Part shown: positions 1 through 64,000 of the stretch, one piece after another
Numbering within the stretch: the stretch's first letter is position 1
How the letters are laid out: every line of letters begins with the position of its first letter
Assembly: GCA_963513545.1 (NCBI GenBank)
Contig: CAUPQW010000001.1
Span: 298,194 to 362,193 of the forward strand
Origin: an uncultured Flavobacterium sp.
Lineage (GTDB): Bacteria; Bacteroidota; Bacteroidia; Flavobacteriales; Flavobacteriaceae
DNA: 64,000 nucleotides
Direction of reading: 5' to 3'
Notes under the pieces: generated by a model
Seen by the model: only the letters and a program-made list of their open reading frames with translations
Database searches by the model: none
What the model was told of the DNA's origin: nothing
Translations under genes and position numbers: made by a program

Positions 1-2
1 CG

Positions 3-6670: not shown

Positions 6671-6775
6671 AACTTTAATAGATATGGTATTGATAACCCC
6701 AATCGCATAGATATGAAGACAACGATTATGCGTGTTAGTAAAGGGCAGGTTAATAACAGGAAAAAACTCACTTAA
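6671..6775 (+). pseudogene. vestigial RHS core-end fragment (orphan tip remnant)
   Basis: Translates to NFNRYGIDNPNRIDMKTTIMRVSKGQVNNRKKLT*. The DNA 'aaactttaatagatatggt' is identical to the main core end at about 5038-5058 (QNFNRYGYCINNP). Only ~35 codons remain after the motif and there is no start codon. Confidence 0.55.
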
Positions 6776-6973
6776 ATTTGAGGTTTTTGTATTTTATACT
6801 TAAATGAAGTTTTAAAGTATACTAATTTTTTAAGCTTAATAAATAGTCAACAGTTGTAAAGTATATAAACCCAGTGGAAATCTTTTTTGATTAGTTATAA
6901 CTTAAATTAGGAATTACTAACAATTGAAAAAGCAGATAATCCATTTTTAATGGTTTAGATTTAGCCGAAGCCT

Positions 6974-7405
6974 TTATTGTACGTTGTAATCCTCATAAAA
7001 TTTTATTCTATCGCCCATCAAAAACATTTTTTTCTTAGCAAAATGAATAGAAAACTGACTGTACATCCATTCGTCGCTGTCTTCCGTTCTGTACCAGAAT
7101 GTATACGAAGCGCTGTTGTATCCTTCCTTAAGTATAGCAGTACCTTCCCAATTGCATTCGATTCCCCAGTTTATTTTTTTCTTGGTCATATCATCATATT
7201 GTATCACTCCCGTTCCGTCGTCATTTAAAACTGTGCTTGGTTCTTTTTTGTCCGGAGGCAGGAATGTACCGGTAATATGGTAAGGAAGGGTATTGGTAAT
7301 ATAATGTTCTTTTGATTTATATACGATTTGATCAACCTGAACTTGTGAATGTGATTTTATAGTAACAAAAAATAAGATAAAAAGGAATATTTTTAGGATT
7401 TTCAT
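6974..7405 (-). CDS. hypothetical secreted protein
   Basis: 143-aa ORF with an N-terminal signal-like segment MKILKIFLFILFFVTIKSHSQ. No family recognised. Confidence 0.55.
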   Translation of the reverse strand: MKILKIFLFILFFVTIKSHSQVQVDQIVYKSKEHYITNTLPYHITGTFLPPDKKEPSTVLNDDGTGVIQYDDMTKKKINWGIECNWEGTAILKEGYNSASYTFWYRTEDSDEWMYSQFSIHFAKKKMFLMGDRIKFYEDYNVQ

Positions 7406-7560
7406 TTTATGTCGGTTTTAGGTTTTGAAACTTTTTTTAAAATATGGGGCATTTCTTTGGCTAATATACTTTAATTTTTGCAAGAAAATAACCATTCATT
7501 TTTGAATTTAACTTAAAAGTTAAACTCAAAAAAAATAATTATTTGAAAAGAGATAATCCT

Positions 7561-7594
7561 AAAAAAAAGCCTCAGCAATACATATTGTTGAGGC
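7561..7594 (-). terminator. intrinsic terminator downstream of purL
   Basis: Hairpin gcctcagcaata / tattgttgaggc, with an A-run on the + strand that reads as a U-run on the minus transcript. Confidence 0.6.
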
Positions 7595-7617
7595 TGTCTA
7601 TATAATGAAAAATAAAT

Positions 7618-10600
7618 TTAGTTTTTTTCAATCCATTTTTTAGCATTCACAAAAGCTTCATGCCAAGGAGAAACCTCGTCGTTTCTGTCTTTTGCATAAT
7701 ACGCCCAGTTCCATTGGAAAGTCGAACGTTCAATGTGAGGCATCATAACCAAATGTCTTCCGGTTTTGTCACATAGCATTGCGGTGTTGTAATCAGAACC
7801 GTTTGGGTTTGCAGGATATCCTTCGTAAGCATATTTAGAAACAATGTTGTATTGGTCTTCTGCGTAAGGCAATTTAAATTTACCTTCTCCGTGAGAAACC
7901 CAAACTCCTAAAGTACTTCCTGCCAAAGTAGATAACATCACCGAATTATTTTCCTGAACCGTTACAGAAGTAAAGATGCTTTCGTGTTTCTGGCTTTCGT
8001 TATGGTGCATTTTTCCGTGAACTTCATGCTCCGGATTGATCACTTCTAATTCCATAAACAATTGGCAACCGTTACAGATTCCAACCGATAAAGTATCTTC
8101 TCTTTTGAAGAAATTATCTAAAGCTGTTTTTGCTTTTTCGTTATATAAGAAAGCTCCAGCCCAACCTTTAGCAGAACCTAAAACGTCAGAGTTAGAGAAT
8201 CCACCAACTGCTCCGATAAACTGAATATCTTCAAGAGTTTCACGTCCAGAAATTAAATCTGTCATGTGAACGTCTTTTACGTCAAATCCTGCCAGGTACA
8301 TAGCATTTGCCATTTCACGCTCAGAATTACTTCCTTTTTCACGGATAATAGCTGCTTTTGGTCTTGGTTTTGAGTTGTCGATTTCTGGTTTCTTTCCTGT
8401 AAAATGAGTAGGGAAAGTATAATTTAAAACCTGATTTTTATAGTTTTCGAAACGTGCTTTTGCAGTTCCATTTTTAGATTGTTTTTGATCTAATAAATAT
8501 GAAGTTTCGAACCAGATATCTCTATAAGTCGGAATGTCTAAAGTCCAAAGTCCAAGGTCTAAAACTGCAGTTTCCTGAATTGAACCAATTTTGAAGAATT
8601 CGATATTATTGGCTTTCAATTTAGCTTCAACAGTTGCATCAGATTTTGCCTGAAAAACAATTCCGATGTTTTCTGCGAAAAGGATTTTCAATACGTCTTT
8701 TTCTGCGAAAGCGCTGAAATCAATTTTAGCTCCCAAATTCACATCTGCAAAACACAATTCTAATAAAGTAGTGATTAAACCACCGCTTCCGATATCGTGA
8801 CCTGCTAAAATTTGGCTTTCGCCGATTAATTCCTGAATTGTATTAAAGGCATTTTTGAAGAAAGAAGCGTCTTTAATGGTAGAAGTTTCGTTTCCGATTG
8901 TATTTCTGATTTGTGCAAAAGACGAACCACCTAATTTAAAATCATCCTGAGACAAATTGATATAATAAATGGATTCTCCGTCTTTTTGTAAAACAGGTTC
9001 TACAACTTTTCTAATATCGGTACAATTTCCTCCTGCCGAAATAATAACCGTTCCCGGCGCAATTACTTCATCGTTTGGATATTTTTGTTTCATCGAAAGT
9101 GAATCTTTTCCTGTCGGAATATTGATTCCCAATTCGATTGCAAATTCAGAACAGCCTTCAACTGCAGCATACAAACGAGCGTCTTCACCTTCGTTTTTAC
9201 AAGCCCACATCCAGTTTGCAGAAAGAGAAATTCCTTTCATTCCGTCTTTAATCGGGGCCCAGATAATGTTTGATAAAGATTCTGCAATTGCATTTCTCGA
9301 ACCTGCAACAGGATCAATCAAAGCCGCGATAGGAGCGTGCCCGATAGAAGTTGCGATTCCTTCTTTTCCTAAATAATCCAAAGCCATTACACCAACATTG
9401 TTCAATGGCAATTGTAACGGACCGGCATTTTGTTGTTTAGCAACTCTTCCTCCAACACAACGGTCAACTTTGTTTGTTAACCAGTCTTTTGAAGCAACAG
9501 CTTCTAAACGTAAAACGTCTTTTAAATATGATTCAAAATCTGCAGTGTTGTAAACAACATCAGCATATTTTCTGTCGATAGTTTTGTCTGTCATAACCGT
9601 TTTTGGAGAACTTCCAAAGAAATCTTCCAAAGCATAATCCATTGGTTTAGAACCGTTAGATTGTGATTGAAAAGTAAAACGGTGATCGCCCGTTACATCT
9701 CCAACCTGATACATTGGCGAACGCTCTCTGTCAGCAATTCTTTGCAAAGTATCGATATCTTTTTGACCAATAACCAATCCCATTCTTTCCTGAGATTCGT
9801 TACCGATAATTTCTTTTGCCGAAAGTGTTGGGTCTCCAACTGGTAATTTGTCTAGATCGATCAAACCTCCAGTTTCTTCAACCAACTCAGAAAGACAGTT
9901 TAAGTGTCCACCCGCACCGTGATCGTGAATAGAAACAATTGGATTATTGTCGCTTTCTACTAAACCACGAATTGCATTTGCAGCACGTTTTTGCATTTCC
10001 GGGTTTGAACGCTGAATAGCATTCAACTCAATTCCTGAACCGAAAGCTCCAGTATCTGCAGAAGAAACTGCAGCTCCACCCATTCCGATTCTATAATTTT
10101 CTCCTCCAAGGATTACGATTTTATCGCCTTCTTGTGGTTTATGTTTTATTGCCTGATTTAATTTTCCGTAACCAATTCCACCCGCTTGCATGATTACTTT
10201 ATCGTAACCAATTTTACGGTCGTTTTCTCCATGTTCGAAAGTTAAAACAGAACCTGTAATAAGTGGCTGACCGAATTTATTTCCAAAATCTGAAGCTCCG
10301 TTTGAAGCTTTGATCAAAATATCCATTGGAGTCTGGTACAGCCATTTTCTTTCTTCAAGAGCATTTTCCCATTTTCTGTCATTGTTCAAACGAGAGTAAG
10401 AAGTCATATAAACCGCAGTTCCTGCTAATGGTAATGAACCTTGACCACCCGCCAAACGGTCACGAATTTCTCCTCCTGAACCTGTTGCAGCTCCGTTGAA
10501 AGGCTCTACAGTTGTTGGGAAATTGTGTGTTTCTGCTTTTAAAGATAAAACAGAATCAAATTTTTTTATTTCGTAAAAATCAGGTTTGTCTGCCGATTTT

Positions 10601-48392: not shown

Positions 48393-48818
48393 CTACATGG
48401 AATTGGATTGGCTTTTCCTTTTTCTCTTAGCTTCCTTTGGCACTTCAGGTCCATCATCGTCGGCAGTTTGGTTTTGCTTTTTACTGCCTTGTTTCTCGGA
48501 AGTCTGCTGGGTTTCAGTTTGTTTTTCTTCTTGGCTTTTACGATTGTCAATTCGTTTCATATTATTATCATAGATATTAATTGTTTTGAATTGCGGGCTG
48601 GCTTCAATGTACTGCTTGATCTCATTGCTTTCTTTTAAGAAAGTAGCGCTCTGCAGATTTCCCTTTTTCAAAGAATTCATCAAGTCTTCTTTGTATTTTG
48701 GGGTTTCCAGTTCCTTAATCGGATGTTTGGACAATGCTGCTTCTAAATCATAGCCGTAATTCTGGTGGTAATGGTTTAGTTTAAAATTTCCATTAGTTTC
48801 GGATTGTTTGAAGTCCAT
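48393..48818 (-). CDS. mobile-element protein carrying the same ~60-aa module, with a Lys/Glu/Gln-rich tail
   Basis: See the paralogous module above. The start abuts the truncated coupling-protein gene. Confidence 0.55.
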   Translation of the reverse strand: MDFKQSETNGNFKLNHYHQNYGYDLEAALSKHPIKELETPKYKEDLMNSLKKGNLQSATFLKESNEIKQYIEASPQFKTINIYDNNMKRIDNRKSQEEKQTETQQTSEKQGSKKQNQTADDDGPEVPKEAKRKRKSQSNSM

Positions 48819-49691
48819 TTGAACCCCGCCTACCTAAATAACGTAATGGACCAATTGGAGGGGCAGATTGCTTCTGCAAAAATTGCCATGGCAAGGCTTT
48901 CCTCACCACAATTGTATTATGTTTTGTCCGGCAGCGATTTCACATTGGACATCAATAATCCGGACGATCCTAAGATCGTATGTATGGGTAATAATCCGCA
49001 GAAAATCCAGATTTATGGAGCTGTATTGTCACTTTACGTAAACCGATTGGTAAAGCAGGTAAACCAAAAAAACAAACAGAAAAGCAGTTTGATATTCGAT
49101 GAATTTCCAACTATTTATCTTAACAATATGGACAGTCTAATTGCAACTGCAAGAAGTAATAAAGTGGCAACCTGTTTGGGTATTCAGGATTTTAGCCAGC
49201 TCCGTAAAGACTATGGACGAGAACAGGCGGATGTTATTATGAATATTGTTGGGAACATTGTCAGCGGGCAGGTTACTGGGGATACTGCCAAACAATTATC
49301 AGAGCGTTTTGGGAAAATTATGCAGGACAGGGAAAGCCTTTCGATTAATAGTGGGGATACGTCAATCAGCCGCTCCAAACAATTGGAATCAGCAGTACCG
49401 CCGTCCAAAATTTCCGGACTTAGTTCCGGTGAGTTTGTAGGTATGGTAGCCGATGATCCGGATTGTAAAATCGAACTCAAAACATTTCATTCTGAAATAA
49501 TTAATGACCATCAGGCGTTGAAAATCGAACAGGATAATTACGTCGATATTCCTGTCATTCGAAAAGTCGATAATGCGATGGTACAGCGAAATTATCTGCA
49601 GATAAAAAAGGATATCAAGGATATCATTTATGCTGAAAAGGAAAGACTGTTGAATGATATTGAATTGAGCCATCTGGTAATTAAGAAATGA
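48804..49691 (+). pseudogene. 5'-truncated type IV secretion coupling protein (Bacteroidota TraG/TraD-type T4CP), C-terminal ~295 aa only
   Basis: LIFDEFPTIYLNNMDSLIATARSNKVATCLGIQDFSQLRKDYGREQADVIMNIVGNIVSGQVTGDTAKQLSERFGK is the conserved C-terminal ATPase part. No Walker A or TM N-terminal half. The frame opens only at 48798 after a TAG, and the only available start is a TTG. Confidence 0.7.
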
Positions 49692-50689
49692 TAATAAATA
49701 AAAACTTAAACTTAGAAATAATGATACAGGAACAATTTATCGATATAATCCAATTAATAAAACAATCCAGATCAAAAGCTATTGCTGCTGTTAATACTGA
49801 AATGATTAATCTGTACTGGAATATAGGACAGTATATTCATAATCGTATAGAAACAGCAGAGTGGGGAAAATCAGTCGTAAAAGAACTGGCTGATTTTTTA
49901 CAGAAAAGCGAACCTGATTTAAAAGGATTTTCCGATAAAAATCTTTGGAGGATGAAGCAATTTTATGAATCATACAGAGGCTATCCAAAACTCTCAACAG
50001 TGTTGAGAGAAATTAGCTGGTCACATAATCTTGCTATTTTTTCAAGATGTAAAACGATACAAGAAAAAGAGTTTTATCTGAAGTTAGCAAAGCAAGAAAA
50101 CTATAGTTTTAGGGAATTGGATCGACAGATTTCTTCCAGTCTTTATGAAAGAACTATGTTAGGTAATGCAAAACTCTCAACAGTGTTGAGAGAAATTCAT
50201 CCGGAGGCTCTAAATGCCTTTAAAGACAGTTATATTTTTGATTTTTTAAACCTTGTAGAGCCACATAAGGAGGGAGATCTACAGAAAGGACTGATAAAAC
50301 AAATGAAAAATTTTATCTTGGAATTGGGTAAAGATTTTTTATTTGTAGAAGAAGAATATAAAATTCAGGTCGGTAATAGTGATTTTTTTATTGACTTGTT
50401 ATTCTATCATAGGGGATTACAATGCCTTGTAATATTTGAGTTAAAATCTGATAAATTTAAACCTGAGCATTTAGGACAACTTAATTTTTATCTGGAAGCA
50501 CTTGATCGTGATGTAAAAAAAGAAAACGAAAATTCAAGTATTGGTATTTTATTATGCAAAGACCAAGACCACGCAGTGGTAGAATATGCTTTAAGCAGAA
50601 GTCTTTCTCCAACCATGGTTGCAGAATATAAGGTTCAACTTCCGGACAAACAATTGCTAATGCAAAAAATGCAAGAATTATTAAAATAA
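49688..50689 (+). CDS. DUF1016/YhcG-like PD-(D/E)xK nuclease family protein
   Basis: The N-terminal helical part (INLYWNIGQYIHNRI, FSDKNLWRMKQFYESY) and the C-terminal core (FIDLLFYHRGLQCLVIFELKSDKFKPEHLGQLNFY) fit the YhcG pattern. The ATG overlaps the upstream stop (ATGA). Confidence 0.7.
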   Translation: MIINKNLNLEIMIQEQFIDIIQLIKQSRSKAIAAVNTEMINLYWNIGQYIHNRIETAEWGKSVVKELADFLQKSEPDLKGFSDKNLWRMKQFYESYRGYPKLSTVLREISWSHNLAIFSRCKTIQEKEFYLKLAKQENYSFRELDRQISSSLYERTMLGNAKLSTVLREIHPEALNAFKDSYIFDFLNLVEPHKEGDLQKGLIKQMKNFILELGKDFLFVEEEYKIQVGNSDFFIDLLFYHRGLQCLVIFELKSDKFKPEHLGQLNFYLEALDRDVKKENENSSIGILLCKDQDHAVVEYALSRSLSPTMVAEYKVQLPDKQLLMQKMQELLK

Positions 50690-51771: not shown

Positions 51772-51779
51772 TATTTTTG
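51772..51779 (+). promoter_or_regulatory. -7 promoter box for the Fn3 / SprB-repeat / toxin operon
   Basis: TATTTTTG (TAnnTTTG) lies 33 nt upstream of the ATG at 51812. Confidence 0.4.
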
Positions 51780-51811: not shown

Positions 51812-53878
51812 ATGTCAAAAAGCAAGCTTCTTTTTTTGTTCTTATTATTTATATCACTATCATATTCTCAGGCTAAACGTGCTACTGTCATGGTCAATGC
51901 CAGAGCTCAAAAAGATAAAATTTTGATTCGTTGGGCTGTTAATTCCCCTGCTGAATGGCAAAAAGCGAATAAAAAAGGATTTATACTTACCAGAACCACA
52001 GTATTACGAGATGGTAATGTTTTACCAAAACCTGAAAAAATTCTTCTTACTCCAAAAGCATTAGTAGCGGAACCTTTGAACGCCTGGCTTGATCTGGTAC
52101 AAAAAGATAATAATGCAGCTATTATAGCACAATCTATTTATGGAGAAAGTTTTGAGGTAACTTCTGCAAAAGAAGGAGATTTGTCAAAAATAGTAAATAT
52201 GGCAGATGAACTGAATCAGCGATATACATTTGCTTTGTATGCAGCCGATATGAGTTTTACCGGTGCGGTAAAAGCGGGCTGGGGATTTGTAGATACCAAT
52301 GTAAAGAAAAATGAAGTCTATGCTTATCAGGTAAGTGTTTTTGAAAGCCCAAAAGTTAAGGAATCATCTTACATGATAGGCTTAAAAGATTATAGTGCAC
52401 TTCCGGCTCCAACTGATTTTATTGCAGTTCCCGACGACAAAAAAGTATTACTTTCCTGGGATTACGAAACCTTTAAAAGAATTTATACCTCTTATATGGT
52501 CGAAAAATCTTCTGATGGAATCAATTTTAATCCCATAGCAACTACGCCTTTAGTAAACTTGAATGATAAAGACGAACATCCGTCAAAAACAATGTATTAT
52601 ATTGATACCCTTAGTGTAAACGATAAGATCTATCAATATCGATTATACGGTATAACTTCATTTGGAGAAAAAGGAGAAGTAACAAAACCAATTACTGCAA
52701 AAGGAGTAGCTGCTATAGTTACAGCGGCAAGGCTTGTAGATTATAATATCATTAATTCAAACGAAGTTAATCTTGAATGGGAATATCCTGTAGCCTCTGA
52801 AGGTTTCATACAAGGGTATGAAATTAATTTAGCGGATAACGATAAAGGTCCCTATAAAATTGTTTCTAAAATTATTCCACCATCCGAGAGAAAACTCAAT
52901 TATAAAGAAAATTTGTACCCCTCTAATTATTTTACAATATCTGTTGTAGGTAAAAATAATCAACGATTAACATCACAAAGTATGTTAGTCCAGCCTGTAG
53001 ATTCTATACCACCTGCAAAACCAATGGGGATCGAAGGAGTAATTGATAGCCTTGGGGTAGTTCGATTAAAATGGAAACCTAATCAGGAAAAAGATTTGCG
53101 AGGATACCGAATTTTAAAAGCCAATAACCCTGATGAAGAGTTTGTTGATATTTATCATCAATCTTATGTTGGTAATGACTATAAAGACAGTGTAAGTCTG
53201 AAGATGACAAACAGTAAGGTATATTATAGAATTGCTGCCGAAGATATGCGTTTTAATATTTCTGACCCATCTGATGTTTTGGTTTTGGATAAACCGGATA
53301 AAATCCCACCAGCAGCACCTATTTTTAAAGACTACGATAATAAAGACGGCAAAGTACATTTAAAATGGATACGAAGTTATAGTGAAGATGTAGTAGGATA
53401 TAGCCTAAGAAGGAGAGAAAAAGGACAAGAAAAGTGGCTGGAAATTAAGCAAATAAATGATACTATCCAGGAATTTACAGATGATAGGGTAGAGAACAAG
53501 AAAACATATCAGTATGCTATTTTGGCAAAGGATAAAAGTAATCTTTGGTCATCGTTAGATCATTCTATCATAACAGTACAGGTTTTAGATTTTACACCAG
53601 TTAAAATAATTACATTTTTACAAGGTGTACCAGACAGGGAAAACAAAAAAATAATCCTGACGTGGAGCTATGCTAAAAACAAAGGCAAAATTACAGGTTT
53701 GAGTATTTATAAAAATATTAAAGGAACGCCACCAACATTGTGGAGAGAATTAAATGGTGATGTTTTTACTTTAGAAGACAAGAATTTAAAGATAAATATG
53801 GAATACGAGTATCACTTGATTCCTGATCTGGAGAATAGCAGCCCTGCAAAAGAAGAAGTTTTAACCGTTGTTTATTAA
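51812..53878 (+). CDS. secreted multi-Fn3-like repeat protein (first gene of the toxin operon)
   Basis: Signal peptide MSKSKLLFLFLLFISLSYSQA. About 6 Fn3-like modules of ~95 aa (KILIRWAV..., KVLLSWDY...YQYRLYGITSFGEKG, VNLEWEYP..., VVRLKWKP...YYRIAAED, KVHLKWIR...YQYAILAKD, KIILTWSY...). No T9SS tail recognised. Confidence 0.8.
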   Translation: MSKSKLLFLFLLFISLSYSQAKRATVMVNARAQKDKILIRWAVNSPAEWQKANKKGFILTRTTVLRDGNVLPKPEKILLTPKALVAEPLNAWLDLVQKDNNAAIIAQSIYGESFEVTSAKEGDLSKIVNMADELNQRYTFALYAADMSFTGAVKAGWGFVDTNVKKNEVYAYQVSVFESPKVKESSYMIGLKDYSALPAPTDFIAVPDDKKVLLSWDYETFKRIYTSYMVEKSSDGINFNPIATTPLVNLNDKDEHPSKTMYYIDTLSVNDKIYQYRLYGITSFGEKGEVTKPITAKGVAAIVTAARLVDYNIINSNEVNLEWEYPVASEGFIQGYEINLADNDKGPYKIVSKIIPPSERKLNYKENLYPSNYFTISVVGKNNQRLTSQSMLVQPVDSIPPAKPMGIEGVIDSLGVVRLKWKPNQEKDLRGYRILKANNPDEEFVDIYHQSYVGNDYKDSVSLKMTNSKVYYRIAAEDMRFNISDPSDVLVLDKPDKIPPAAPIFKDYDNKDGKVHLKWIRSYSEDVVGYSLRRREKGQEKWLEIKQINDTIQEFTDDRVENKKTYQYAILAKDKSNLWSSLDHSIITVQVLDFTPVKIITFLQGVPDRENKKIILTWSYAKNKGKITGLSIYKNIKGTPPTLWRELNGDVFTLEDKNLKINMEYEYHLIPDLENSSPAKEEVLTVVY

Positions 53879-53882
53879 GCTT

Positions 53883-56800
53883 ATGAAGAAAATTTACGTA
53901 TTGATAATTTTATTGGTTTCAGGCTTTTGTTTTAGTCAGGGTGTTGGTGTATATGATGTTAGTTTTAATATAACAGGTATTGATGTAAAAGTAAATATAT
54001 CAGGAAATTGTGGCAGTCGTTTACAATCGTGGCTAATTTTTAGTAATGCTGCTGATCAGTCTTTTTTTTATCAACCAGTTGGTGACGGACAAAATCTTCC
54101 CAGAAATTGGACTGCTACTTTTCCCAGCTCCAATAAACTTACCAAGATTAAATATTATTCTGAGGGAAGGGAATATCATGGAGGGTTGAATTCTGGTTGT
54201 AAAAACGATCACAATAGTACGGAGTCTCAGAATGTTTCATACGGAATTACAGAATATTATATTGGGAATTATTTTACCAGACTTTATAACTTAAGTGCAA
54301 CACTTAAGATCCTTCCTAAACTTCATATAGAAATACCTGCCAATAACATTTTACCAACAACTGACAAGGTTACAATAAAATCCGATACAGGATTTTTGAG
54401 TTCTGAATACAATTGGCAATATTCATTTAATCCTCTTGACTCATCAAGTTGGGTAAGTCTTCCACAATTTAATACGGCAAATATATCGGTAAACGCCTTA
54501 GATGTCTTACCAGTATTGGATGAAACAAGTCATGGGAAAATTGTTTATTTTAGACAAATAGCCTATAATGGGGCTGCGGTTTCAAATCCGGTTCCTTACA
54601 GTATACGTTTATCTGCACCAAAAGTTGCTTCAGCAGTACCTGTTCAGCCAAGTTGTAGTGATACTAATGATGGATTTATAAAACTTGTGTTTGACCGGAC
54701 TTTATATCCCGGCGAACAGTTAAATTATACTTTACTGGACCTTACTACAAATACTCCTACTGATTATAATGGCACATTGTCTATTGCAGCAGATAAATCT
54801 TTTGTCATTTCGGGTTTAAGAAAAGGCAATTATATGCTGCAGCTAATTGGCTTTAAAAATGGATTAAGTACGGCTACTGATGCAGATCGATATGATTTGA
54901 AGTCATTTACAATAGCATCTCCTCCTGTATTGGATTTTACGCTAAACAGCACTGATGTACAATGTTACGGATCTCAGGACGGTACCATAACGATTACTCC
55001 AACCGGAGGAACCCGGACTGTATTAGACAATGATTATTATTCATTAGATAATGGATTGAACTGGGTTGCTTTTCCTAATAATACACCACATACTATTACC
55101 GGTTTGGAACTTGGTACATACAAAGTGAAATTAAAAGATATGAATGGCTGTATTGCTAGAATTCAAACATCAGTAAATGGAGAGATTCAGCTTGGTGATG
55201 ATAAAGTACTGGAAAAAACGATTTCACAACCCGCATCACCATTAACACTCAATTACACATTCAAAAAAGATCCCACCTTTTACGGAGCAGCTAACGGAAA
55301 ATTAACAGCCTCGATAACTGGTGGAACAATCAATGATGATAAATCGTATGAGTACGAATGGAAAAATAGTAATGGTATAGCTTTACTGGCAACAGCACAG
55401 TATAATGCTGCTGATAAAACGTATAATATTACCTTAGATAATGTTCCTGAAGGAGAATACAAACTGACAGTCAAAGATAAAAATTACAGTAATGCTAGTA
55501 ATAAAACAGCTTGTTCGATTATAGAATCATCACAAATATTAACCCAGCCTGATCAAATTATTATTGCTTTAGCAGAAACACAGCCTATTTCCTGTAATAC
55601 TGGAAATTTAGAATCAGATGTAAATAAATTCTCAGACGGAATTTTAAAAGCGACAGTAAGTGGTGGCGTTAAATTTACAGGATCAGCAAATAATGGTTTG
55701 CCTTATAAATTTATCTGGTCAAAATACAATACTGCAACAAATTTATGGGAAGAGTTGACAGATTATAAAACAGATACTGCAGAGAATCTTTCAAAAGGAA
55801 ACTATTCGCTAAACATTACAGATGCGAACGGAATAGTACAAGGAACTTATAACACTACAGATCTAGTAACAGCAGTTCCAACAACAAAAGAAATCGCTGA
55901 ACCCACAAAATTGGAATTGTCATTTACCTCAGAAAATGTTTTCTGTCACCAGGGAAATAATGGTTGGGCTACTGCAACTGTCACCGGAGGAACAGGGGCT
56001 TATACATATACATGGTACAATACGGGTAACGGAACTATTGACCAAAACAAAATAACTCAGTTAACAGCAGGGGAATATTTTGTTGAGGTGACAGATGCAA
56101 AGGGCTGTTTTATAAAAGGTAGTATCAAAATTAGTGAGCCAACGGAAATGGTAAAAATTGACTACGAAGAAATTTTCACGCCTACCTTTTCAGGAGCCAC
56201 TAACGGAAGAATTATAGCCAGGATAACAGGAGGAACACCAAATGATGATCAATCCTATAATTACGAATGGAAAAATGGAGCAGGAGTATTACAAACGACA
56301 ACAGCTGAAATAAAAGACGGCATTTATACCATTACGCTAAATGGTGTTCCTGCCGATGATTATTTTTTAACCATAAAAGACAAGAATTATAACGAAGCAA
56401 TAAATCAAATTATTAATTGTTCGGTCTTAGAGTCAAAAGTGACATTGAATCAGCCTGATCCTTTAAAAGTTGTTTTTGAAATCGTCCGTACTATTTCTTG
56501 TAATACAAGTAACGAGTTCGGAAATGATACAGATACAACACCAAATGACGGTCAGCGTGATGAATCGCAAGATGGTATTTTAACCGCTCATGTTTCAGGA
56601 GGAACTCCGCTGGCATCCTCTGTAAATAATGGATTACCGTATTATTTTTATTGGAAAAAGCAACAGACAGATGGCTCCTGGACCAGCTTACCTGACATTA
56701 CGGGAGAAACAGCTTCGGATCTTTCTCATGGGAATTATGCCTTAAATGTAAAAGACAGAAACGGAATCATGTTAGGAACTTACATCAATAACCAGCTTAC

Positions 56801-58973
56801 ACAAGAAATTGACGCAACCCAATTGATGCAGGAACCTCCCAAATTATCCGTAACCATTACCCATGGCGATGTGTTTTGTAATGATGGAAATGATGGTTGG
56901 GCTACAGCAAATGTTGTGGGCGGAACCCCTCCGTATGATTATAAATGGTCGAATGAAGTAGAAATTGATACAAACACTGTTTTAAAAGCGGGTGAATATT
57001 GGGTATTTATTACAGATGCCAAAGGATGTACTACGCAAGAAAGTATTACGATTTCAGAACCTGCAGCACCGCTTGCTATTAAATATATCGAAGTTCTTAA
57101 TCCAAGTTTTTACAAAGCGACCAATGGAAAAATAGTGGTAGAAGTTACCGGTGGTACTATTTTCTCAGACAACTCCTATTGGTTTGAATGGAAAAATAGT
57201 AAAGGAATTGTACAAACGACAACCACAACGAATTTCAGTAACGGAGTTTATACCATTTCCTTAAACGGGCTTCCGGAGGAAATGTATAGCTTAACAGTTC
57301 GTGATGCCAATTATAATCCTGCAACAAATAAAACAAGTTGCACCGTGGCAAATTCTTTAACAGCTTTAGACGACCCGGATCCGCTTGAAGTTACTTTTGA
57401 GGTAGTTCGTACTATTTCCTGTAATGTGAGTAATGAATTTGGAAATGAGACCGATGCTGATCCGATGGACAATCAAAGAGATGAATCGCAGGATGGTCTT
57501 TTGACAGCCCATGTTAAGGGAGGGATTCAGTTGCAGGCGGATAAAAATAACGGATTGCCTTATTTTTATACATGGAAAAAACAACAAAAAGATGGTTCGT
57601 GGACAATCTGGAATGATCAGGATGAAACCGCAGAAAATTTGTCTGACGGAACCTATGCTTTGAATATTGAAGATGCCAACGGAATAAAACTCGGAACGTA
57701 TCTCAATAATATTTTGGTTCAGGCAAAAGATGTTGCCCAATATATGCCGGAGCCTGAAAAATTAAAACTCACTTTTACTAAGTTAGATGTAGGCTGTACA
57801 ACAGGAAATGACGGTTGGGCAGAAGCGCATGTTTCCGGGGGCACTCCACCTTATATGTATGAGTGGACAAATGGAGAAACAACCCCAAGAATAGAAAACA
57901 TTACCACAAACAATTACTTTGTAATCGCAACCGATGCAAAAGGTTGTATTGTTCAGGGAAGCATTTTTGTTGGTGATCCAAAAGGAATATTTACGACTGA
58001 AATCATCAAAAATACTACTTGTTATCAAGGGAATGATGCTTCGATAGAATTAAATGTTACAGGTGGAAATTTACCTTACAGCTATTTATGGAACACTGGT
58101 GCTACGACCAAAGACCTAAATAATCTTACAGCAGGAAATTATGAAGTTGCTATTACCTGTCCTGATTGCTGTACATATAAAAAGAAATTTGTTTTAAAAG
58201 ATCCGCAACCTGTTATTGTAAATATTGGTCCTGACAGAACCTTATGCAACGATCAGAATCTGGATTTAGAGGCGAAAATTGCAGATCCGAAAGCACAATA
58301 CAGCTGGACCTCTACAAATGGATTTACCTCGAATGAAGCAAAAGTAAATGTATCAAAAGCCGGAACCTATCACGTAAAAGTAACTTCAGGTTTAGGATGT
58401 GTTAGCGAAGATGAAATTGTAATAAAAACAAGTCAGGCAGTAATTAATTCCGAATTTTTATTGAGCTCTCAGGCTTATTTGGATGAAGAAGTAATATTGA
58501 TTAATACAAGCAGCCCTATTGGCGAAGATACAGAATGGGTGATACCTCAAGGGGTGAATAGTATAGAGCAAAACGAAAAATACGCAACACTCAAATTTAG
58601 TGCGATTGGTACTTATACCATTGGTCTGAAGCAAACACAAGGGGAGTGTTATGCTACATTTAATAAAAATATTACGGTAGAGCAACGAAGTACATTACCT
58701 AATACAGGCACAACATCGCAATTCATTGTAGATTTTATCGTAACTCCAAATCCGAGTAATGGTAATTTTAAAGCACTTGTGACTTTAGAAAACAATAGTG
58801 ACATAAACCTAAGACTATTCTCAACAACAGGACAAAATACTATGATTCAGAAAAAAGAATCCGGAAAGAAAAAGTATGAAATAGATTTTGAGACCACATT
58901 AGAATCCGGAATGTATGTTTTAGTATTAGAAACAGGGCAACAAACATTGGTTAAAAAAATTATCATCAATTAA
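53883..58973 (+). CDS. giant SprB-repeat cell-surface protein with T9SS type-A C-terminal sorting domain
   Basis: ATG at 53883 (MKKIYVLIILLVSGFCFSQG), 4 nt after the upstream stop. SprB-type repeats: CHQGNNGWATATVTGGTGAYTYTWYN, CNDGNDGWATANVVGGTPPYDYKWSN, CTTGNDGWAEAHVSGGTPPYMYEWTN, CYQGNDASIELNVTGGNLPYSYLWN. C-terminal TPNPSNGNFKALV...GMYVLVLETGQQTLVKKIIIN. Confidence 0.88.
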   Translation: MKKIYVLIILLVSGFCFSQGVGVYDVSFNITGIDVKVNISGNCGSRLQSWLIFSNAADQSFFYQPVGDGQNLPRNWTATFPSSNKLTKIKYYSEGREYHGGLNSGCKNDHNSTESQNVSYGITEYYIGNYFTRLYNLSATLKILPKLHIEIPANNILPTTDKVTIKSDTGFLSSEYNWQYSFNPLDSSSWVSLPQFNTANISVNALDVLPVLDETSHGKIVYFRQIAYNGAAVSNPVPYSIRLSAPKVASAVPVQPSCSDTNDGFIKLVFDRTLYPGEQLNYTLLDLTTNTPTDYNGTLSIAADKSFVISGLRKGNYMLQLIGFKNGLSTATDADRYDLKSFTIASPPVLDFTLNSTDVQCYGSQDGTITITPTGGTRTVLDNDYYSLDNGLNWVAFPNNTPHTITGLELGTYKVKLKDMNGCIARIQTSVNGEIQLGDDKVLEKTISQPASPLTLNYTFKKDPTFYGAANGKLTASITGGTINDDKSYEYEWKNSNGIALLATAQYNAADKTYNITLDNVPEGEYKLTVKDKNYSNASNKTACSIIESSQILTQPDQIIIALAETQPISCNTGNLESDVNKFSDGILKATVSGGVKFTGSANNGLPYKFIWSKYNTATNLWEELTDYKTDTAENLSKGNYSLNITDANGIVQGTYNTTDLVTAVPTTKEIAEPTKLELSFTSENVFCHQGNNGWATATVTGGTGAYTYTWYNTGNGTIDQNKITQLTAGEYFVEVTDAKGCFIKGSIKISEPTEMVKIDYEEIFTPTFSGATNGRIIARITGGTPNDDQSYNYEWKNGAGVLQTTTAEIKDGIYTITLNGVPADDYFLTIKDKNYNEAINQIINCSVLESKVTLNQPDPLKVVFEIVRTISCNTSNEFGNDTDTTPNDGQRDESQDGILTAHVSGGTPLASSVNNGLPYYFYWKKQQTDGSWTSLPDITGETASDLSHGNYALNVKDRNGIMLGTYINNQLTQEIDATQLMQEPPKLSVTITHGDVFCNDGNDGWATANVVGGTPPYDYKWSNEVEIDTNTVLKAGEYWVFITDAKGCTTQESITISEPAAPLAIKYIEVLNPSFYKATNGKIVVEVTGGTIFSDNSYWFEWKNSKGIVQTTTTTNFSNGVYTISLNGLPEEMYSLTVRDANYNPATNKTSCTVANSLTALDDPDPLEVTFEVVRTISCNVSNEFGNETDADPMDNQRDESQDGLLTAHVKGGIQLQADKNNGLPYFYTWKKQQKDGSWTIWNDQDETAENLSDGTYALNIEDANGIKLGTYLNNILVQAKDVAQYMPEPEKLKLTFTKLDVGCTTGNDGWAEAHVSGGTPPYMYEWTNGETTPRIENITTNNYFVIATDAKGCIVQGSIFVGDPKGIFTTEIIKNTTCYQGNDASIELNVTGGNLPYSYLWNTGATTKDLNNLTAGNYEVAITCPDCCTYKKKFVLKDPQPVIVNIGPDRTLCNDQNLDLEAKIADPKAQYSWTSTNGFTSNEAKVNVSKAGTYHVKVTSGLGCVSEDEIVIKTSQAVINSEFLLSSQAYLDEEVILINTSSPIGEDTEWVIPQGVNSIEQNEKYATLKFSAIGTYTIGLKQTQGECYATFNKNITVEQRSTLPNTGTTSQFIVDFIVTPNPSNGNFKALVTLENNSDINLRLFSTTGQNTMIQKKESGKKKYEIDFETTLESGMYVLVLETGQQTLVKKIIIN

Positions 58974-58975
58974 AA

Positions 58976-61900
58976 ATGAAGAACTTTTTCAAAAATATAA
59001 TTTTATTCATATTGTTCCCCCTTTGGGGGCTAGGGGGATTTGGCTCAGGGGCTTACGCTCAGCTTTATCCGGTTCAGTTAACACCTGTTTTCAATAGTCC
59101 GTATAGTGTCAAAATGTCGGATTATACCAACAGCATGGATATTAAAATGCAATTGCTGATCAATCCTACAGATATCTCTATATCGCAAAGACAGGTACGT
59201 CTAAAATTTTACATACAAGGTAACGGACTCAACATACAAAGCAGTGATTATATACAGGGGCAGCGCCCAATTTTTATAAATGGTGGAGAATTGCAAACGC
59301 TTACCAATACTGATATTGCGGCACTATTTAGGTTAGAAAATCTGCAGGGAATTTCTCCTGCACAATATGCCAATGGATTACCTGAAGGGATGTATAGCTT
59401 TTGCTTTGAAATGTATGATTTTGTGACCAACCAGAAGATCTCACAAAAAAGCTGTTCCAGTTTATACCTGATCTTAAATGATCCACCAATATTAAATACG
59501 CCACAAAAAAACGAACAAATTGCTTCAACAGAATTTCCGAATATTTTATTTACCTGGACACCGCGCCAGATCAATGCAACCAATGTATCGTATAAGTTTG
59601 AGTTAAAACAGCTTATTGATCCTGCATTAGACCCACAATTCGGGTTTCAAATGTCTCCCATTTTATATGAGGAAACACTTTTTGGGACTGCTTTGCTGTA
59701 TAATTTAAGCATGCCAATTCTTACCCCTGGATTGCGTTATGCATGGCGGGTAAAAGCGATTTCGACCACAGGACTTTCAGAGAATGCCATATTTAAGAAT
59801 GATGGATACAGCGAGATCTATTCGTTTAAATATACATCGTCCTGTACTGCCCCAACTTTTTTATTAAGCGAATCCCAGAGTTCTAAAAGTGTCAAAATCA
59901 CTTGGCAAGGAACGCCGGAACATACACGCTATCAGGTACAATACAAAAAACAAGGTGTTCGTAATGCACAATGGTTTTCGATCAATAGTTTAAACACACA
60001 AAGCTTAATCACCAATTTAGAGCCCGGTGTTACGTATCAGTTTAGAGTAGGTTCAAGCTGTGATCCCGTAACCGAAGGCGTTCAGTCGTTTACCTATTCC
60101 GGCATCAGCACCTTTACAACACCTACAGAGACAAGTGGCGTTGCTGCTTATAACTGTGGTATTATTCCTCAAATTAATATTCAGAACCAAAAACCGCTTA
60201 CGAATTTAATACAAGGCGAAACGTTTAAGGCGGGCGATTTTCCGGTCACAATTTCTGAACTTAAAGGCGAGAACAGTCCTTATTCAGGACGCGGTTATAT
60301 AATGGTTCCTTATTTAAATCAAATTAAAATAGCTGTTCAGTTTAGTAATATCACGATCAATACCGATTATCAATTGATTAGCGGTGTTGTGGAAACGGCT
60401 TATGATGCGAAGTGGAGTGATGTTGTTAATGGAAAAGAAATAATTGATGATGTAAAAAGTTTACTGGAAGGAATTGCGGATCTCTTTAATAGAGCCGATG
60501 AATTAGAAAAGCAAAAAGCGGCGGGTACAACTAGTGAAGAAGATTATAATAAGAATTGGAAAGAAATTTATGCTGGTCTGGAAAAAGCTAAGGAACAATA
60601 TAAAACATTAGTAAATGCTCCTGATATTCCTGAGGACTTAAAGAAAAAAGTTGCTGATTTAGATCCGGTTTTTGTTGAGTTGGCTTCTAATAATTATACA
60701 ACGTCAGGCAATCAAAACCAGGAGAATTTAGCAAAAACAAACGCAGTTTTTGATGAAGTAAATAAGTTTTTTAGTGAAAAATGTGATGTTGCACTTAAAA
60801 GTGTTGTAGCCTTTTTAGCGACAGAAAAAGTAACTTATTTAAAATTAGTAGCCAGTGAAGTGTCAAAAACTACAGCATCAGTTTCAGGAAGCAAGACATA
60901 TATGACCTCTATTTATGAGGAAGGAAAAGGCACTTTAAAAATAATACATTATAAAGGATGGAGTATTAGTAACCCTGTCCAGAACTTATTTTTGATTGAG
61001 ACCAATGATGCAGAATTAAATAAATTAAAAATAACAAAATTTTGGTTGAGCTATGTCCCCAATAGTGTAGATGGATATGCAGCGGGAGTTGATGTAACAA
61101 TTTATTTTAAAGATCCGGTACCAAATCCTGATGAACCTTTTTGTACACAAAAAACCACTATTGTCAAAGGTGTTTCTGCGCAAGCACAATTTTCAGATGC
61201 AATGGGACAAATGGTTTTTTATGGAGCTTTAGGTTTAGGTTCAGTAGAGGCATTAGCAAGCGTAAAAGCAACCGAATGTATTACAGGATTTGCCCTTGAT
61301 ACAGGCTTTCAAATGGGGATAAATGCTATTGTAAAACGATATTTGAATGAGAGTTTTACGACGAAACAATTAATGAAAGAAGTTTCCCTGCCAAGTGCAG
61401 CGACAAGCTGTGCAACAGCGGCTCTAGTAAATAAATGCGGTACGGGATGTGCAGGTGTTAGTGGTTTTGTAGTAGGTTTTGGTGATGATATTTTAAACCA
61501 GCTAAAAAGCGGAAAAAGCTTATCTGAGGTAGAAATTAGCCAAAGTACTTTAAACGGTATAAAGCAAGCAATTTTAACTATCGTACTTCAAAAAGTAATT
61601 ACTTTTGGTATAGGTAAATTTTCTGCATGGAAGGGTAAATATACACCAAAACAGGTTGAAGATGCTTTAGAAGATTTGCAGGCTAACCCTGAGAAGTATG
61701 GAGTTGAAGGAGCTTTAGTAGCAAAGAATGTTGAGGATGTGATTTCAAAAAAGGTTTTAAAAACGATCACGAAATACGATAGAAAGTTAGGAAAAACGGT
61801 TGAATATCCAATGTATAATAATTTAGCTTTAGGAAAAGATTTAAATGGTACCCTTAAAAAATTTGGTGATGAAGTTGGCGCTAATGTTTGGACTGCTGAA

Positions 61901-62221
61901 ACTGATAATGTTTTTACTTCAATGTATGATCTTATGGATAGTAGAAGTTTCGAGAGAAACATTTCTGATGTATTTACTCAAACGATCAAAAATGAAGGAA
62001 AAATACTTTTTGATATAACTAGTGTAAATATTCAAAAAGCAATTGATGGAGGTTTAACACATAATACTAAATTGGTACTTGATGATAAACTAGTTACAGA
62101 ATTAGAATTACAATTAATTCTAAGAAATCAATCTTGGTTTGAAAATGTTATATTCCATAATCAAGGGAAGATATTATCTAATCAAGAGCTTACAAATGCA
62201 GGTATTAAATTAATTAATTAG
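58976..62221 (+). CDS. polymorphic toxin: signal peptide, conserved N-terminal domain, Fn3, coiled coil, Gly/Cys-rich pre-toxin region, conserved handle, ~170-aa variable C-terminal tip
   Basis: ATG 2 nt after the upstream stop. Signal MKNFFKNIILFILFPLWGLGGFGSGAYAQ. Fn3: VKITWQGTPEHTRYQVQYKK...YQFRVGSSC. The handle GFGDDILNQLKSGKSLSEVEISQSTLNGIK...GIGKFSAWKGKYTPKQVEDALEDL..PEKYG is duplicated at 62660-62895 in front of a different tip. Confidence 0.8.
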   Translation: MKNFFKNIILFILFPLWGLGGFGSGAYAQLYPVQLTPVFNSPYSVKMSDYTNSMDIKMQLLINPTDISISQRQVRLKFYIQGNGLNIQSSDYIQGQRPIFINGGELQTLTNTDIAALFRLENLQGISPAQYANGLPEGMYSFCFEMYDFVTNQKISQKSCSSLYLILNDPPILNTPQKNEQIASTEFPNILFTWTPRQINATNVSYKFELKQLIDPALDPQFGFQMSPILYEETLFGTALLYNLSMPILTPGLRYAWRVKAISTTGLSENAIFKNDGYSEIYSFKYTSSCTAPTFLLSESQSSKSVKITWQGTPEHTRYQVQYKKQGVRNAQWFSINSLNTQSLITNLEPGVTYQFRVGSSCDPVTEGVQSFTYSGISTFTTPTETSGVAAYNCGIIPQINIQNQKPLTNLIQGETFKAGDFPVTISELKGENSPYSGRGYIMVPYLNQIKIAVQFSNITINTDYQLISGVVETAYDAKWSDVVNGKEIIDDVKSLLEGIADLFNRADELEKQKAAGTTSEEDYNKNWKEIYAGLEKAKEQYKTLVNAPDIPEDLKKKVADLDPVFVELASNNYTTSGNQNQENLAKTNAVFDEVNKFFSEKCDVALKSVVAFLATEKVTYLKLVASEVSKTTASVSGSKTYMTSIYEEGKGTLKIIHYKGWSISNPVQNLFLIETNDAELNKLKITKFWLSYVPNSVDGYAAGVDVTIYFKDPVPNPDEPFCTQKTTIVKGVSAQAQFSDAMGQMVFYGALGLGSVEALASVKATECITGFALDTGFQMGINAIVKRYLNESFTTKQLMKEVSLPSAATSCATAALVNKCGTGCAGVSGFVVGFGDDILNQLKSGKSLSEVEISQSTLNGIKQAILTIVLQKVITFGIGKFSAWKGKYTPKQVEDALEDLQANPEKYGVEGALVAKNVEDVISKKVLKTITKYDRKLGKTVEYPMYNNLALGKDLNGTLKKFGDEVGANVWTAETDNVFTSMYDLMDSRSFERNISDVFTQTIKNEGKILFDITSVNIQKAIDGGLTHNTKLVLDDKLVTELELQLILRNQSWFENVIFHNQGKILSNQELTNAGIKLIN

Positions 62222-62225
62222 TTAT

Positions 62226-62552
62226 ATGGAAAAAATAACAGAAATTTTTGGATTACAAATACACGCAATAATTCATTATTATAATGAAAAAAAAATATCA
62301 ATAAGTTTTGATAATACTAATATAAGAATAGAATTTTATAATTGTCCCCTGGTTTTCGACTCAGGTATTATAGGAAAAAAAGTGCTAGTAGCCGAAAGGT
62401 ATAAAGGAGAGATGAGTTTTGTACTTGTTTTTAGAGAAATGAAATTGGATGTCGATGATTATAAATATTTTATAATTAAAGGGCAAGAAGGGTTAGAGCA
62501 TTATCAGAATCAAATAAGAATTGCGTATCAATCGATGGAGATAATTTTATAA
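62226..62552 (+). CDS. putative cognate immunity protein of the 1081-aa toxin
   Basis: 108-aa ORF starting 4 nt after the toxin stop. No signal peptide. No family recognised. Position-based call. Confidence 0.55.
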   Translation: MEKITEIFGLQIHAIIHYYNEKKISISFDNTNIRIEFYNCPLVFDSGIIGKKVLVAERYKGEMSFVLVFREMKLDVDDYKYFIIKGQEGLEHYQNQIRIAYQSMEIIL

Positions 62553-62674
62553 TAATTTATTGATTTTCCCTAATTCCGAACTACTAGGTTTTTTAGCGAT
62601 TTTAAAAACTTTCGGATGATAGTTGATATCAATCATTTTATAAAACCTTTACATAAACAGGTTTTGGTGATGAT

Positions 62675-63532
62675 GTGTTGAACCAGTTAAAAAGTGGAAA
62701 AAGCTTATCTGAGGTAGAAATTAGCCAAAGTACATTAAACGGTATTAAGCTAGGTATTTTAAATATTGTGGTCCAAAAAGCAATTACTTTTGGTATAGGT
62801 AAATTTTCTGCTTGGAAAGGTAAATACACTCCAAAACAGGTTGAAGAGGCATTGGAGGATTTAGAATTACATCCCGAGAAGTATGGATTGAAAGGTACTG
62901 AAATAGACGCGACTTTAAGTATAATGCTTAAAAATGCAGATTTTAAAAAGATTTATGAAAATTTGAGTAATGGTAATATTACGAGGGTTTATAGTAAAAT
63001 CTTTAGTATTGAAGAAGAAGCATTAATAAGATTTTATCAAGAAGGTTCATATTACAATTTCAATCAAGCATTAATTAACAAAACTGCTTCACAAGATATA
63101 TTAACTATTGAAAAGATGTTAAATAAGACTTTAGATAAAATTCCATCCAAAGCAGGTAATTATTTCAGAGGTGTAGGAAAAGAAGAAACCTTGAAATTAT
63201 TAGCAAAAAAAGAAGGTGGTGAAATTGGATATGATAATTTTCTATCTAGCTCAAGCGAAAAAGATGTAGCTTGGGGTTTTCTAAGAAAGGTTAATGAGAT
63301 GGATGAAAAAGCATTTATAACAGTAATATCTAAAAATGGCAAAAATCTTGAGAGTGGTAGAGATGTTATGAGAGGAGAGTTTGAAATGCTGCATAAAAGT
63401 AAAACAAAATTCGAAATAGAAAAGATTGAATTTATTGAGAAAGAAATTTTAAATATAGATGATGTAGCAATTGATGGTGCAACACCAGATGTAATCAAGA
63501 AATTTTATTTAATAACAATAAAAGAATTATGA
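62675..63532 (+). CDS. orphan toxin cassette: handle remnant plus ADP-ribosyltransferase-like tip (no ATG start)
   Basis: The frame opens right after a TAA (62654-62656), and homology to the main gene begins at 62660. Only GTG/TTG starts are available (62675/62678). ART signature: SYYNFNQALI, YFRG (Arg codon 63167-63169), FLSSSSE (63245-63256), GEFEML (E-x-E, 63377-63385). Confidence 0.7.
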   Translation: MLNQLKSGKSLSEVEISQSTLNGIKLGILNIVVQKAITFGIGKFSAWKGKYTPKQVEEALEDLELHPEKYGLKGTEIDATLSIMLKNADFKKIYENLSNGNITRVYSKIFSIEEEALIRFYQEGSYYNFNQALINKTASQDILTIEKMLNKTLDKIPSKAGNYFRGVGKEETLKLLAKKEGGEIGYDNFLSSSSEKDVAWGFLRKVNEMDEKAFITVISKNGKNLESGRDVMRGEFEMLHKSKTKFEIEKIEFIEKEILNIDDVAIDGATPDVIKKFYLITIKEL

Positions 63533-64000
63533 GATTAGAGGAGATAGAAAAAATAGAAGAGTTATATCTTTTAAAAAATTCTCACAGATATGAGATACAG
63601 CTTATAGAAGGTTTAAAAAAGGATTTGTATTGGGCATCGCTTTCAGATAAGGAAAAGCTTGAATTAAGAACAAAAGAATTGATGAAAAAATATGTTTTTA
63701 AAGAAATATATTCGGATTTAATGATTTCGTATGAAGAGTCTGTTATAGATTTGGTTAAACTCATAATGAAATTCTTAGATGAAATTAATTTAATTGTTTT
63801 TGATTTTCAAAATATGTCAGAAGATGAATTTATATTATTTCGCTTAAAAAATATGATGTGTGTAGAGTTATATGCTGTAAATAAAAGGGAAAAACTTCAA
63901 TATTCTGGGCATGTACTTTTTGAAGAAGTTGTACAGCCTATTTTTGTTGAGATAGAAAGGACTGAATTTTATATACAATACAGCTTAGAAGATCTAAGAG
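63529..64000 (+). CDS. putative immunity protein of the orphan ART tip, 3'-partial (absent from the ORF track)
   Basis: The ATG at 63529 overlaps the toxin stop (ATGA). Hand translation MRLEEIEKIEELYLLKNSHRYEIQLIEGLKKDLYWASLSDKEKLELRTKELMKKYVFKEIYSDLMISYEES... stays open for 157 codons to the window end. Confidence 0.6.
   Translation, partial: MRLEEIEKIEELYLLKNSHRYEIQLIEGLKKDLYWASLSDKEKLELRTKELMKKYVFKEIYSDLMISYEESVIDLVKLIMKFLDEINLIVFDFQNMSEDEFILFRLKNMMCVELYAVNKREKLQYSGHVLFEEVVQPIFVEIERTEFYIQYSLEDLR

Follow-up and report, generated by a model that had tools for sequence, protein, structure and literature searches.

Polymorphic toxins with ADP-ribosyltransferase (ART) tips are already known, as are VIP2 tips on TANFOR-class toxins and orphan toxin cassettes. 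We analyzed a stretch of 64,000 nucleotides from an uncultured Flavobacterium sp. (GenBank assembly GCA_963513545.1, contig CAUPQW010000001.1, positions 298,194 to 362,193; hereafter the window) that is likely, as the best overall explanation of its features, to hold a spare ART toxin/immunity cassette behind a TANFOR-class toxin gene. What this locus adds to the earlier work is modest: orphan cassettes and slot-swapping within the TANFOR class, an immunity family that is as yet uncharacterized, and the move of the tip to the antibacterial, Tre1-like branch of the ARTs. Coordinates are given as window positions, and the parts of the toxin locus (58976-64000) lie on the forward strand.

The closest solved toxin is Tre1 of Serratia proteamaculans (6DRE and 6DRH), which modifies Arg174 of the cell division protein FtsZ (PMC8120803). 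Like the tips of the family described here, Tre1 is the C-terminal end of a larger delivery protein and has its immunity gene next to it (PMC8120803). The two systems differ in their carriers, a PAAR protein and the type VI secretion system for Tre1 and a Sec-exported TANFOR-class protein in the window, and in their immunity proteins: the Tre1 partner Tri1 is a DraG-like ADP-ribosylhydrolase, whereas the immunity protein in the window carries no known domain. Identity between Tre1 and the window tip in structural alignments is 16–17%.

On the carrier side, the nearest precedent is the TANFOR class, for which VIP2-type ADP-ribosylating tips have already been listed and for which an SprB/CTD gene 5' of the toxin gene is the described arrangement (Jana, Salomon & Bosis 2020, PMC7073777). 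The main toxin gene of the window resembles this class, with an N-terminus that matches TANFOR weakly, a signal-peptide-like segment and an FN3 domain, an upstream gene that combines SprB repeats with the C-terminal domain (CTD) of type IX secretion system (T9SS) cargo, a polymorphic tip and a downstream immunity gene. The same paper makes no mention of orphan cassettes, and it holds VIP2 tips to be anti-eukaryotic, whereas the tip in the window has a conserved immunity partner and is nearest to an antibacterial ART.

Orphan cassettes have been described for Rhs and contact-dependent inhibition (CDI) toxins (Poole 2011, PMC3150448; Koskiniemi 2014, PMC3967940). There, as in the window, a downstream fragment opens with a copy of the pre-tip region, has no signals for initiation or export, comes with an immunity gene of its own, and has its module fused to full-length genes elsewhere (here in loci L012 and L001). 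The window differs in toxin class and phylum, and its junction reads ...PEKYG rather than VENN or PxxxxDPxGL. Recombination has been shown to activate Rhs orphans of Salmonella (PMC3967940), and the same was proposed for CDI orphans, which lack initiation signals (PMC3150448); for TANFOR loci it would apply by analogy.

The ADP-ribosyltransferase tip

The toxin half of the cassette is an open reading frame at 62675..63532, listed mechanically with a GTG start, in which a handle of 79 codons is followed by a tip of 211 residues and a stop codon (62897..63532). An earlier note on this DNA, made from the letters and their translations, had read the tip as carrying a complete R-S-ExE ART signature. 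Direct reading confirmed the frame and the coordinates of all motifs, and the signature itself was borne out by a family profile, by matches to PF03496 among relatives and by an AlphaFold2 (AF2) model. We consider the tip after the handle to be, almost certainly, a complete R-S-ExE mono-ADP-ribosyltransferase domain. Its elements are Tyr121 (63035-63037) and Asn130 (63062-63064), both within FYQEGSYYNFNQAL; Arg165 (codon AGA, 63167-63169) in NYFRGVG; the serine run Ser191-194 (SSSS, 63245-63256) in NFLSSSSEKD; and Glu235-F-Glu237 (63377-63385) in MRGEFEMLH. Homology to the tip of locus L012 starts at 62913, in agreement with the module boundary.

Three-letter motifs alone are no proof of such an assignment, and the statistics given here come from the family profile. 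An exhaustive HMMER search with residues 75-285 of the orphan frame as the query returned 137 relatives of the tip at E ≤ 1e-3, of which 36 also pass E ≤ 1e-10; most of the relatives are the C-terminal ends of long proteins. A family alignment of 38 sequences (A2) was the source of both the ART profile and the AF2 input. Arg165 and Glu237 are invariant across A2, and Ser191, Glu235, Tyr121 and Asn130 are each kept in at least 90% of its sequences. The family consensus reads FYT...Y..FN.AL / YRG.G / F.STS / E.E.L.KS. (dots as in the alignment), with F-L-S191-S-S-S of the window standing at the FxSTS position and Arg165 aligning, in the profile alignments, with the Arg of the YRG motif in Tre1 and Vis.

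Taken individually, 33 of the 38 relatives match PF03496 (best 1.2e-14) and 24 match PF01129. The A2 profile matches more than 30 solved ARTs at E values from 2e-23 to 3e-7, led by Tre1 (2e-23), Vis (6e-22) and XopAI (1e-15) and continuing through SpvB and HopU1 (4e-12), ExoT and ART2.2 (~1e-11), VIP2 (4e-10), iota (6e-10) and CDTa (~1e-9); C3 is reached at 3e-3.

The AF2 model of the tip built from A2 has a predicted local distance difference test (pLDDT) score of 93.1 and a predicted template modeling (pTM) score of 0.87. It places the Arg on strand 84-93, the serine run on strand 116-119 and the ExE at the beginning of strand 163-166, after a loop of lower confidence, which as modeled is the canonical R-S-E layout. 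A Foldseek comparison of the model of residues 75-285 with the PDB, a check that the earlier note had suggested, found the ART fold: the top 50 matches are all R-S-E ARTs, at E ~1e-10, probability 1.00 and template modeling (TM) scores up to 0.63 (up to 0.63/0.74 for Tre1). ExoS, Tre1, CDTa, Vis, iota, C3, Certhrax, VIP2, C2-I, C3larvin and Plx2A are among the top matches.

The earlier note had called the tip C3/VIP2-type, a label that is right at the superfamily level only. The tip shares the R-S-E superfamily and fold with C3, VIP2, iota Ia and CDTa, including equivalent positions for Tyr-x8-Asn, Arg, STS and ExE. Among solved structures, however, it stands nearest to Tre1, Vis and XopAI, and on the A2 profile the C3/VIP2/iota-type ARTs score 13-20 orders of magnitude below Tre1 and Vis. 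Chains of the C3/VIP2/iota/CDTa kind also take ~15-20 more residues to cover the same profile span, and the binary toxins among them carry a duplicated ART and act on eukaryotic actin or Rho. On these sequence comparisons, the tip is best placed as a Tre1/Vis-like R-S-E ART.

The same comparison accounts for the distance between the catalytic Arg and the serine run, which is 26 residues, as the note had counted. It had taken this short spacing as a sign of a compact or divergent subfamily. HMMER alignments to the A2 profile give 25 residues in Tre1 and Vis, which share the R / STS / ExE layout of the window tip; the spacing is hence the norm of this subgroup, and we reject the suggestion of a separate subfamily. 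In C3/VIP2/iota-type ARTs, the Arg-STS spacing is ~43-46 residues (R295/S338 in iota Ia, R128/S174 in C3bot), and most of their extra length sits between these two elements.

What the enzyme acts on can be stated with less assurance. We judge it somewhat more probable than the reverse that the tip is antibacterial and arginine-specific. Arginine is our best guess because the close characterized relatives with an ExE motif are all arginine-specific.

Handles, carrier and putative immunity genes

Positions 62660-64000 are very likely an orphan toxin/immunity cassette of a TANFOR-class polymorphic toxin locus. The earlier note had proposed an orphan cassette followed by an immunity-type reading frame, and both the homology of the handle and the conserved synteny of the two genes support this. 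The orphan handle (62660..62896, 79 codons) reads GFGDDVLNQLKSGKS...PEKYGLKG from 62660 and has neither an ATG nor a signal peptide. It is homologous to residues 834-912 of the main toxin (61475..61711, GFGDD...PEKYGVEG), the copy that we propose as its recombination partner, with 85% amino acid identity (E 9e-42) and 84.4% nucleotide identity that includes perfect tracts of 38 and 30 nt. Similarity between the two copies ends sharply at both edges. These direct copies lie 1185 nt apart and are the only two in the window, where the 38-mer is found exactly twice.

At least four unrelated tips follow the PEKYG of this same handle in proteins P0003-P0006 and the window, and the PEKYG junction is therefore a polymorphic breakpoint. 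Base composition shifts as well: the body of the main gene has ~37% G+C and the two tips and two immunity genes have 26-28%, a drop that is usual for exchanged cassettes.

A TAA stop in the frame of the orphan (62654..62656) lies directly upstream, and the frame opens just 3' of it, so the frame of the cassette cannot be read into from further upstream. The earliest in-frame ATG is codon 84 (62924), in line with the earlier statement that an ATG is lacking, and the only candidate starts before it are GTG (62675) and TTG (62678). A public gene call of the same frame (P0001, 284 aa) begins at the TTG. Two opposite-strand reading frames overlap this region (62638..62829 and 63160..63498); they are unsupported, and we take them as chance frames in AT-rich DNA.

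The main gene (58976..62221) encodes a protein of 1081 aa with a signal-peptide-like N-terminus, a TANFOR-like domain, an FN3 domain (residues 292-358), a pre-tip region and a C-terminal tip. Its match to the TANFOR model TIGR02542 is weak (E 2.6e-8; 33.9 bits against a curated cut-off of 67 bits), and its N-terminal 480-590 residues are 33-43% identical to proteins that match TANFOR equally weakly. Domain searches found no PAAR or Rhs domain in it. Directly upstream, ending 2 nt before the main gene, is the gene for a 1701-aa protein with SprB repeats and a T9SS CTD (Por_Secre_tail; 53868..58973).

The present tip of the main gene (~170 aa, ~61712-62221) matches no Pfam or NCBIfam family, and neither does the 108-aa product of its putative immunity gene (62226..62552), which starts 4 nt after the main-gene stop. 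The same pair is also found in P0003 (Flavobacterium anhuiense) and P0005/L010, and it may represent an undescribed toxin/immunity family.

The putative cognate immunity gene of the ART tip starts at 63529, its ATG overlapping the toxin stop (ATGA), and runs to the window edge (63529..64000), so that 157 of its 174 codons are inside the window; the full length of 174 aa is taken from P0146. Homologues accompany related ART tips in at least nine loci. They lie directly 3' of the tips in L003, L008 (twice), L009, L011 (45% identity, E 2e-40) and L012-L016, and L001 has, behind its tip and again overlapping it by ATGA, a gene for a 191-aa protein with 39% identity to the 63529 product (E 6e-32). 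Searches of Pfam, NCBIfam and the PDB with both the single sequence and the family profile found no relatives of the immunity protein. We also considered an immunity of the Tri1/DraG-like or macrodomain kind and rejected it, as no such domain was matched by the protein or its profile. Most likely, the immunity protein neutralizes the toxin by binding it and not by removing the modification, given that no hydrolase domain was found in it.

Cassette turnover, possible redeployment and rival explanations

Loci of relatives were found by a contig scan with an alignment (A3) narrower than A2, and the near relatives of the cassette show about 81-84% nucleotide identity. In several relatives, near and more distant, the ART is the tip of a longer carrier protein. 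Seven ART-tipped relatives (P0007, P0021, P0017, P0126, P0063, P0013 and P0026) share the N-terminal 300-570 residues of the main protein at 28-43% identity. In Aquimarina (L001), a full-length protein of 1096 aa ends in the ART and is 42% identical to the main protein over 587 aa. The closest case is L012, where the tip is 75% identical at the amino acid level, keeps R, STS and E-Y-E intact, and is followed by its immunity gene (81.5% nucleotide identity over 1100 nt for tip and immunity gene together). This tip ends a protein of 1702 aa that shares, over the first 485 residues, 82.7% identity with the main protein of the window, and its gene, too, lies downstream of an SprB/CTD gene.

The reverse placement is seen in L010, which carries the main tip of the window with its 108-aa immunity gene as a third orphan cassette (81% nucleotide identity), in an array where each cassette has its own immunity gene. 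Cassettes thus sit in the main or the orphan slot depending on lineage, and the handle is the shared sequence at which exchange would take place. The L010 array (positions 1-3860, Logan SRR25428695) opens with a handle, an unknown tip and a 140-aa gene; a short handle remnant with a Toxin-deaminase tip and a 79-aa gene comes second; and the third cassette, of handle, main tip and 108-aa gene, is followed by a further, cut reading frame.

Other relatives show the ART tip in various states of decay. It is a pseudogene in L015/L016, with two in-frame stops, one of them just before the catalytic Arg, and an intact immunity gene. In L013 (Flavobacterium piscisymbiosum), only its last 59 residues remain, after a Y1-transposase gene, again with the immunity gene intact, and L014 retains ~90 nt of the tip and two immunity paralogues. 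The tip of L011/P0002 is truncated and has lost its Arg half. In L008 of Capnocytophaga gingivalis (6535-7824), a frameshifted ART fragment (reading frames of 51 and 64 aa) lies between two paralogous immunity genes, and the cassette family therefore extends to human oral Bacteroidetes. At L013 (7225-9255, JAJJMM010000001.1), two Y1-transposase genes of the IS200/IS605 type flank the ART remnant and the intact immunity gene, and an EndoU orphan lies further downstream; insertion sequence (IS) elements remodel this orphan array.

Two further arrangements of the ART domain were seen among relatives. Loci L004, L005 and L006, all from uncultured Flavobacteriaceae, encode stand-alone proteins of 314 aa with a signal peptide and an ART domain (~6650-7600; 41-42% identity) that have no immunity-like gene adjacent and are followed by a gene for a secreted protein of 1550 aa; this branch of the family may be put to another use, perhaps not an antibacterial one. 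P0010 (901 aa), P0037, P0063 and P0069 each carry two tandem ART domains, an arrangement that recalls the duplicated ART of binary toxins.

As it stands, the orphan fragment would not be deployed, since it lacks an ATG, a signal peptide and a delivery domain. Homologous recombination between the two handles (61475-61711 and 62660-62896) would join the ART tip to the 912 residues that form the delivery part of the main protein, giving a main-ART fusion of 1123 aa. This fusion would be Sec-exported and then released or delivered by the putative TANFOR route, which is possibly linked to the T9SS. Inside a rival bacterium, the ART domain would transfer a single ADP-ribose from NAD+ to an arginine in an essential protein, a step suggested by the ExE motif and by the arginine-specific nearest relatives, and the 174-aa immunity protein would bind the toxin and so shield both the producer and its kin. 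By analogy with the Rhs and CDI orphans, we hold redeployment through handle recombination to be evenly poised; the presence of the main tip of the window in an orphan slot of L010 is indirect evidence on this recombination.

The earlier note had also suggested that the cassette is silent until recombined, and by the same analogy this is a reasonable inference that fits the missing ATG and the missing export signals. As the note had said, no Bacteroidetes '-7 box' (TAnnTTTG) is present in 62553-62675, although this motif occurs at chance frequency window-wide and its absence 5' of the orphan is weak evidence. A sigma-70 promoter scan is not meaningful for Bacteroidetes, and only its negative result for terminators is used below.

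Several findings count against this picture of an ART weapon held in reserve. The window sequence alone scores 15.7 bits against PF03496, under the gathering score of 23.4 bits (E 0.026 and 0.0095), phmmer found no PDB match to it, and an AF2 model from the single sequence is unusable (pLDDT 45). The single sequence being too weak, it is on the family profile and the model that ART membership depends, and it was the family alignment that remedied the single-sequence weakness. On the side of expression, the scan predicted no terminator that would separate the orphan from the main operon, and read-through transcription of the orphan is therefore possible; GTG 62675 and TTG 62678 are available as starts, and translation signals in Bacteroidetes are hard to read. 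A plain deletion between the handles would also lose the current immunity gene (62226-62552), and the productive event may therefore be an unequal exchange or a duplication. The secreted L004-L006 proteins, with no adjacent immunity gene, indicate that the subfamily is not necessarily always antibacterial. Finally, the ART orphan of relatives is often decaying beside an intact immunity gene (L015/L016, L013, L014, L011 and L008), and such cassettes may be maintained for some reason other than redeployment in the future.

This last point leads to the main rival explanation, in which the cassette is an immunity reservoir, kept for protection against ART-deploying neighbors, with a toxin that is an undecayed passenger and is never redeployed. 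Near relatives do keep an intact immunity gene (70-84% identity) beside a damaged or missing tip, as seen in the stops of L015/L016, the Y1 insertion of L013, the remnant of L014, the missing Arg half of L011/P0002 and the frameshift of L008, and a model of this kind was discussed for CDI orphans by Poole et al. (PMC3150448). In the window, by contrast, the frame of 291 codons, the handle, the tip and the catalytic residues are all intact in stop-prone DNA of 27% G+C, and the handle retains its perfect 38- and 30-nt tracts with the main gene. We regard the immunity reservoir as rather unlikely; the reservoir and redeployment models are compatible with each other.

That the tip is instead an anti-eukaryotic toxin, a VIP2/SpvB/C3-like ART acting on actin or small GTPases of protists or animal hosts, seems improbable to us. 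In its favor are the matches of fold and profile to VIP2, iota, CDTa, SpvB, ExoS/T and C3, the listing of VIP2 tips by Jana et al. among predicted anti-eukaryotic ones (PMC7073777), and the secreted stand-alone relatives L004-L006, which have no immunity gene adjacent. A dedicated, overlapping downstream gene has nevertheless been kept with the tip across genera, and self-protection is required only where the targets are bacterial proteins. The top-scoring solved relative is moreover the antibacterial Tre1, and the tip is a single ART domain that lacks the duplicated N-terminal adaptor ART of binary toxins. A toxin-antitoxin-like pair would be another use of the same two genes: a cytoplasmic ART translated from GTG 62675, TTG 62678 or ATG 62924 and restrained by the downstream protein, with a role in addiction or abortive infection and not as a secreted weapon. 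The public gene call P0001 starting at TTG, the ATGA overlap, which suggests coupled expression of both frames, and the lack of a predicted terminator upstream are in keeping with such a pair. Yet the first 79 codons copy an internal segment of the main toxin that has no function alone, the Bacteroidetes -7 box is absent upstream, and the same tip is found C-terminal on full-length exported proteins; this is the explanation we find hardest to credit.

Returning to the spare-cassette explanation, we suggest tentatively, and with slightly less than even confidence in the whole, that the tip and its 174-aa partner form a Bacteroidetes-specific family of interbacterial arginine ARTs with a structurally new, non-enzymatic immunity protein, possibly a new bacterial target, delivery by the putative, possibly T9SS-linked TANFOR route, and handle-mediated swapping between main and orphan slots, a mode of diversification not yet described for TANFOR loci. 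The locus holds no conceptual surprise. It offers an intact toxin-immunity pair from a class that has been little studied, which makes tractable the questions of whether TANFOR toxins act between bacteria and what the ART tip modifies, and an immunity family with no known relative could reveal a new way to block an ART active site. The series from full-length toxin to intact orphan, pseudogene, IS-disrupted remnant and immunity gene alone also provides a natural experiment on whether orphan arrays are ammunition stores or immunity collections.

Other features of the window

Upstream of the locus, a -7 box of the Bacteroidetes type (TATTTTTG, 51772-51779) lies 33 nt 5' of an ATG at 51812. Three genes, those of an FN3 protein (51812), the SprB/CTD protein (53868) and the TANFOR toxin (58976), may form an operon with this box as its promoter. 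About 1 kb 5' of this toxin operon, at 48804-50689, a truncated reading frame for a TraG/VirD4-type coupling protein (295 aa) overlaps a YhcG/DUF1016 gene for a PD-(D/E)xK nuclease; these are mobile-element remnants.

A second, unrelated polymorphic toxin is encoded at 39-6107, near the other end of the window. This FG-GAP/RHS-repeat protein of 2022 aa ends in an Ntox23 domain (PF15528, E 1.3e-36), and its gene is overlapped by a reading frame of 169 aa (6101-6610) that belongs to no family and is probably its immunity gene.

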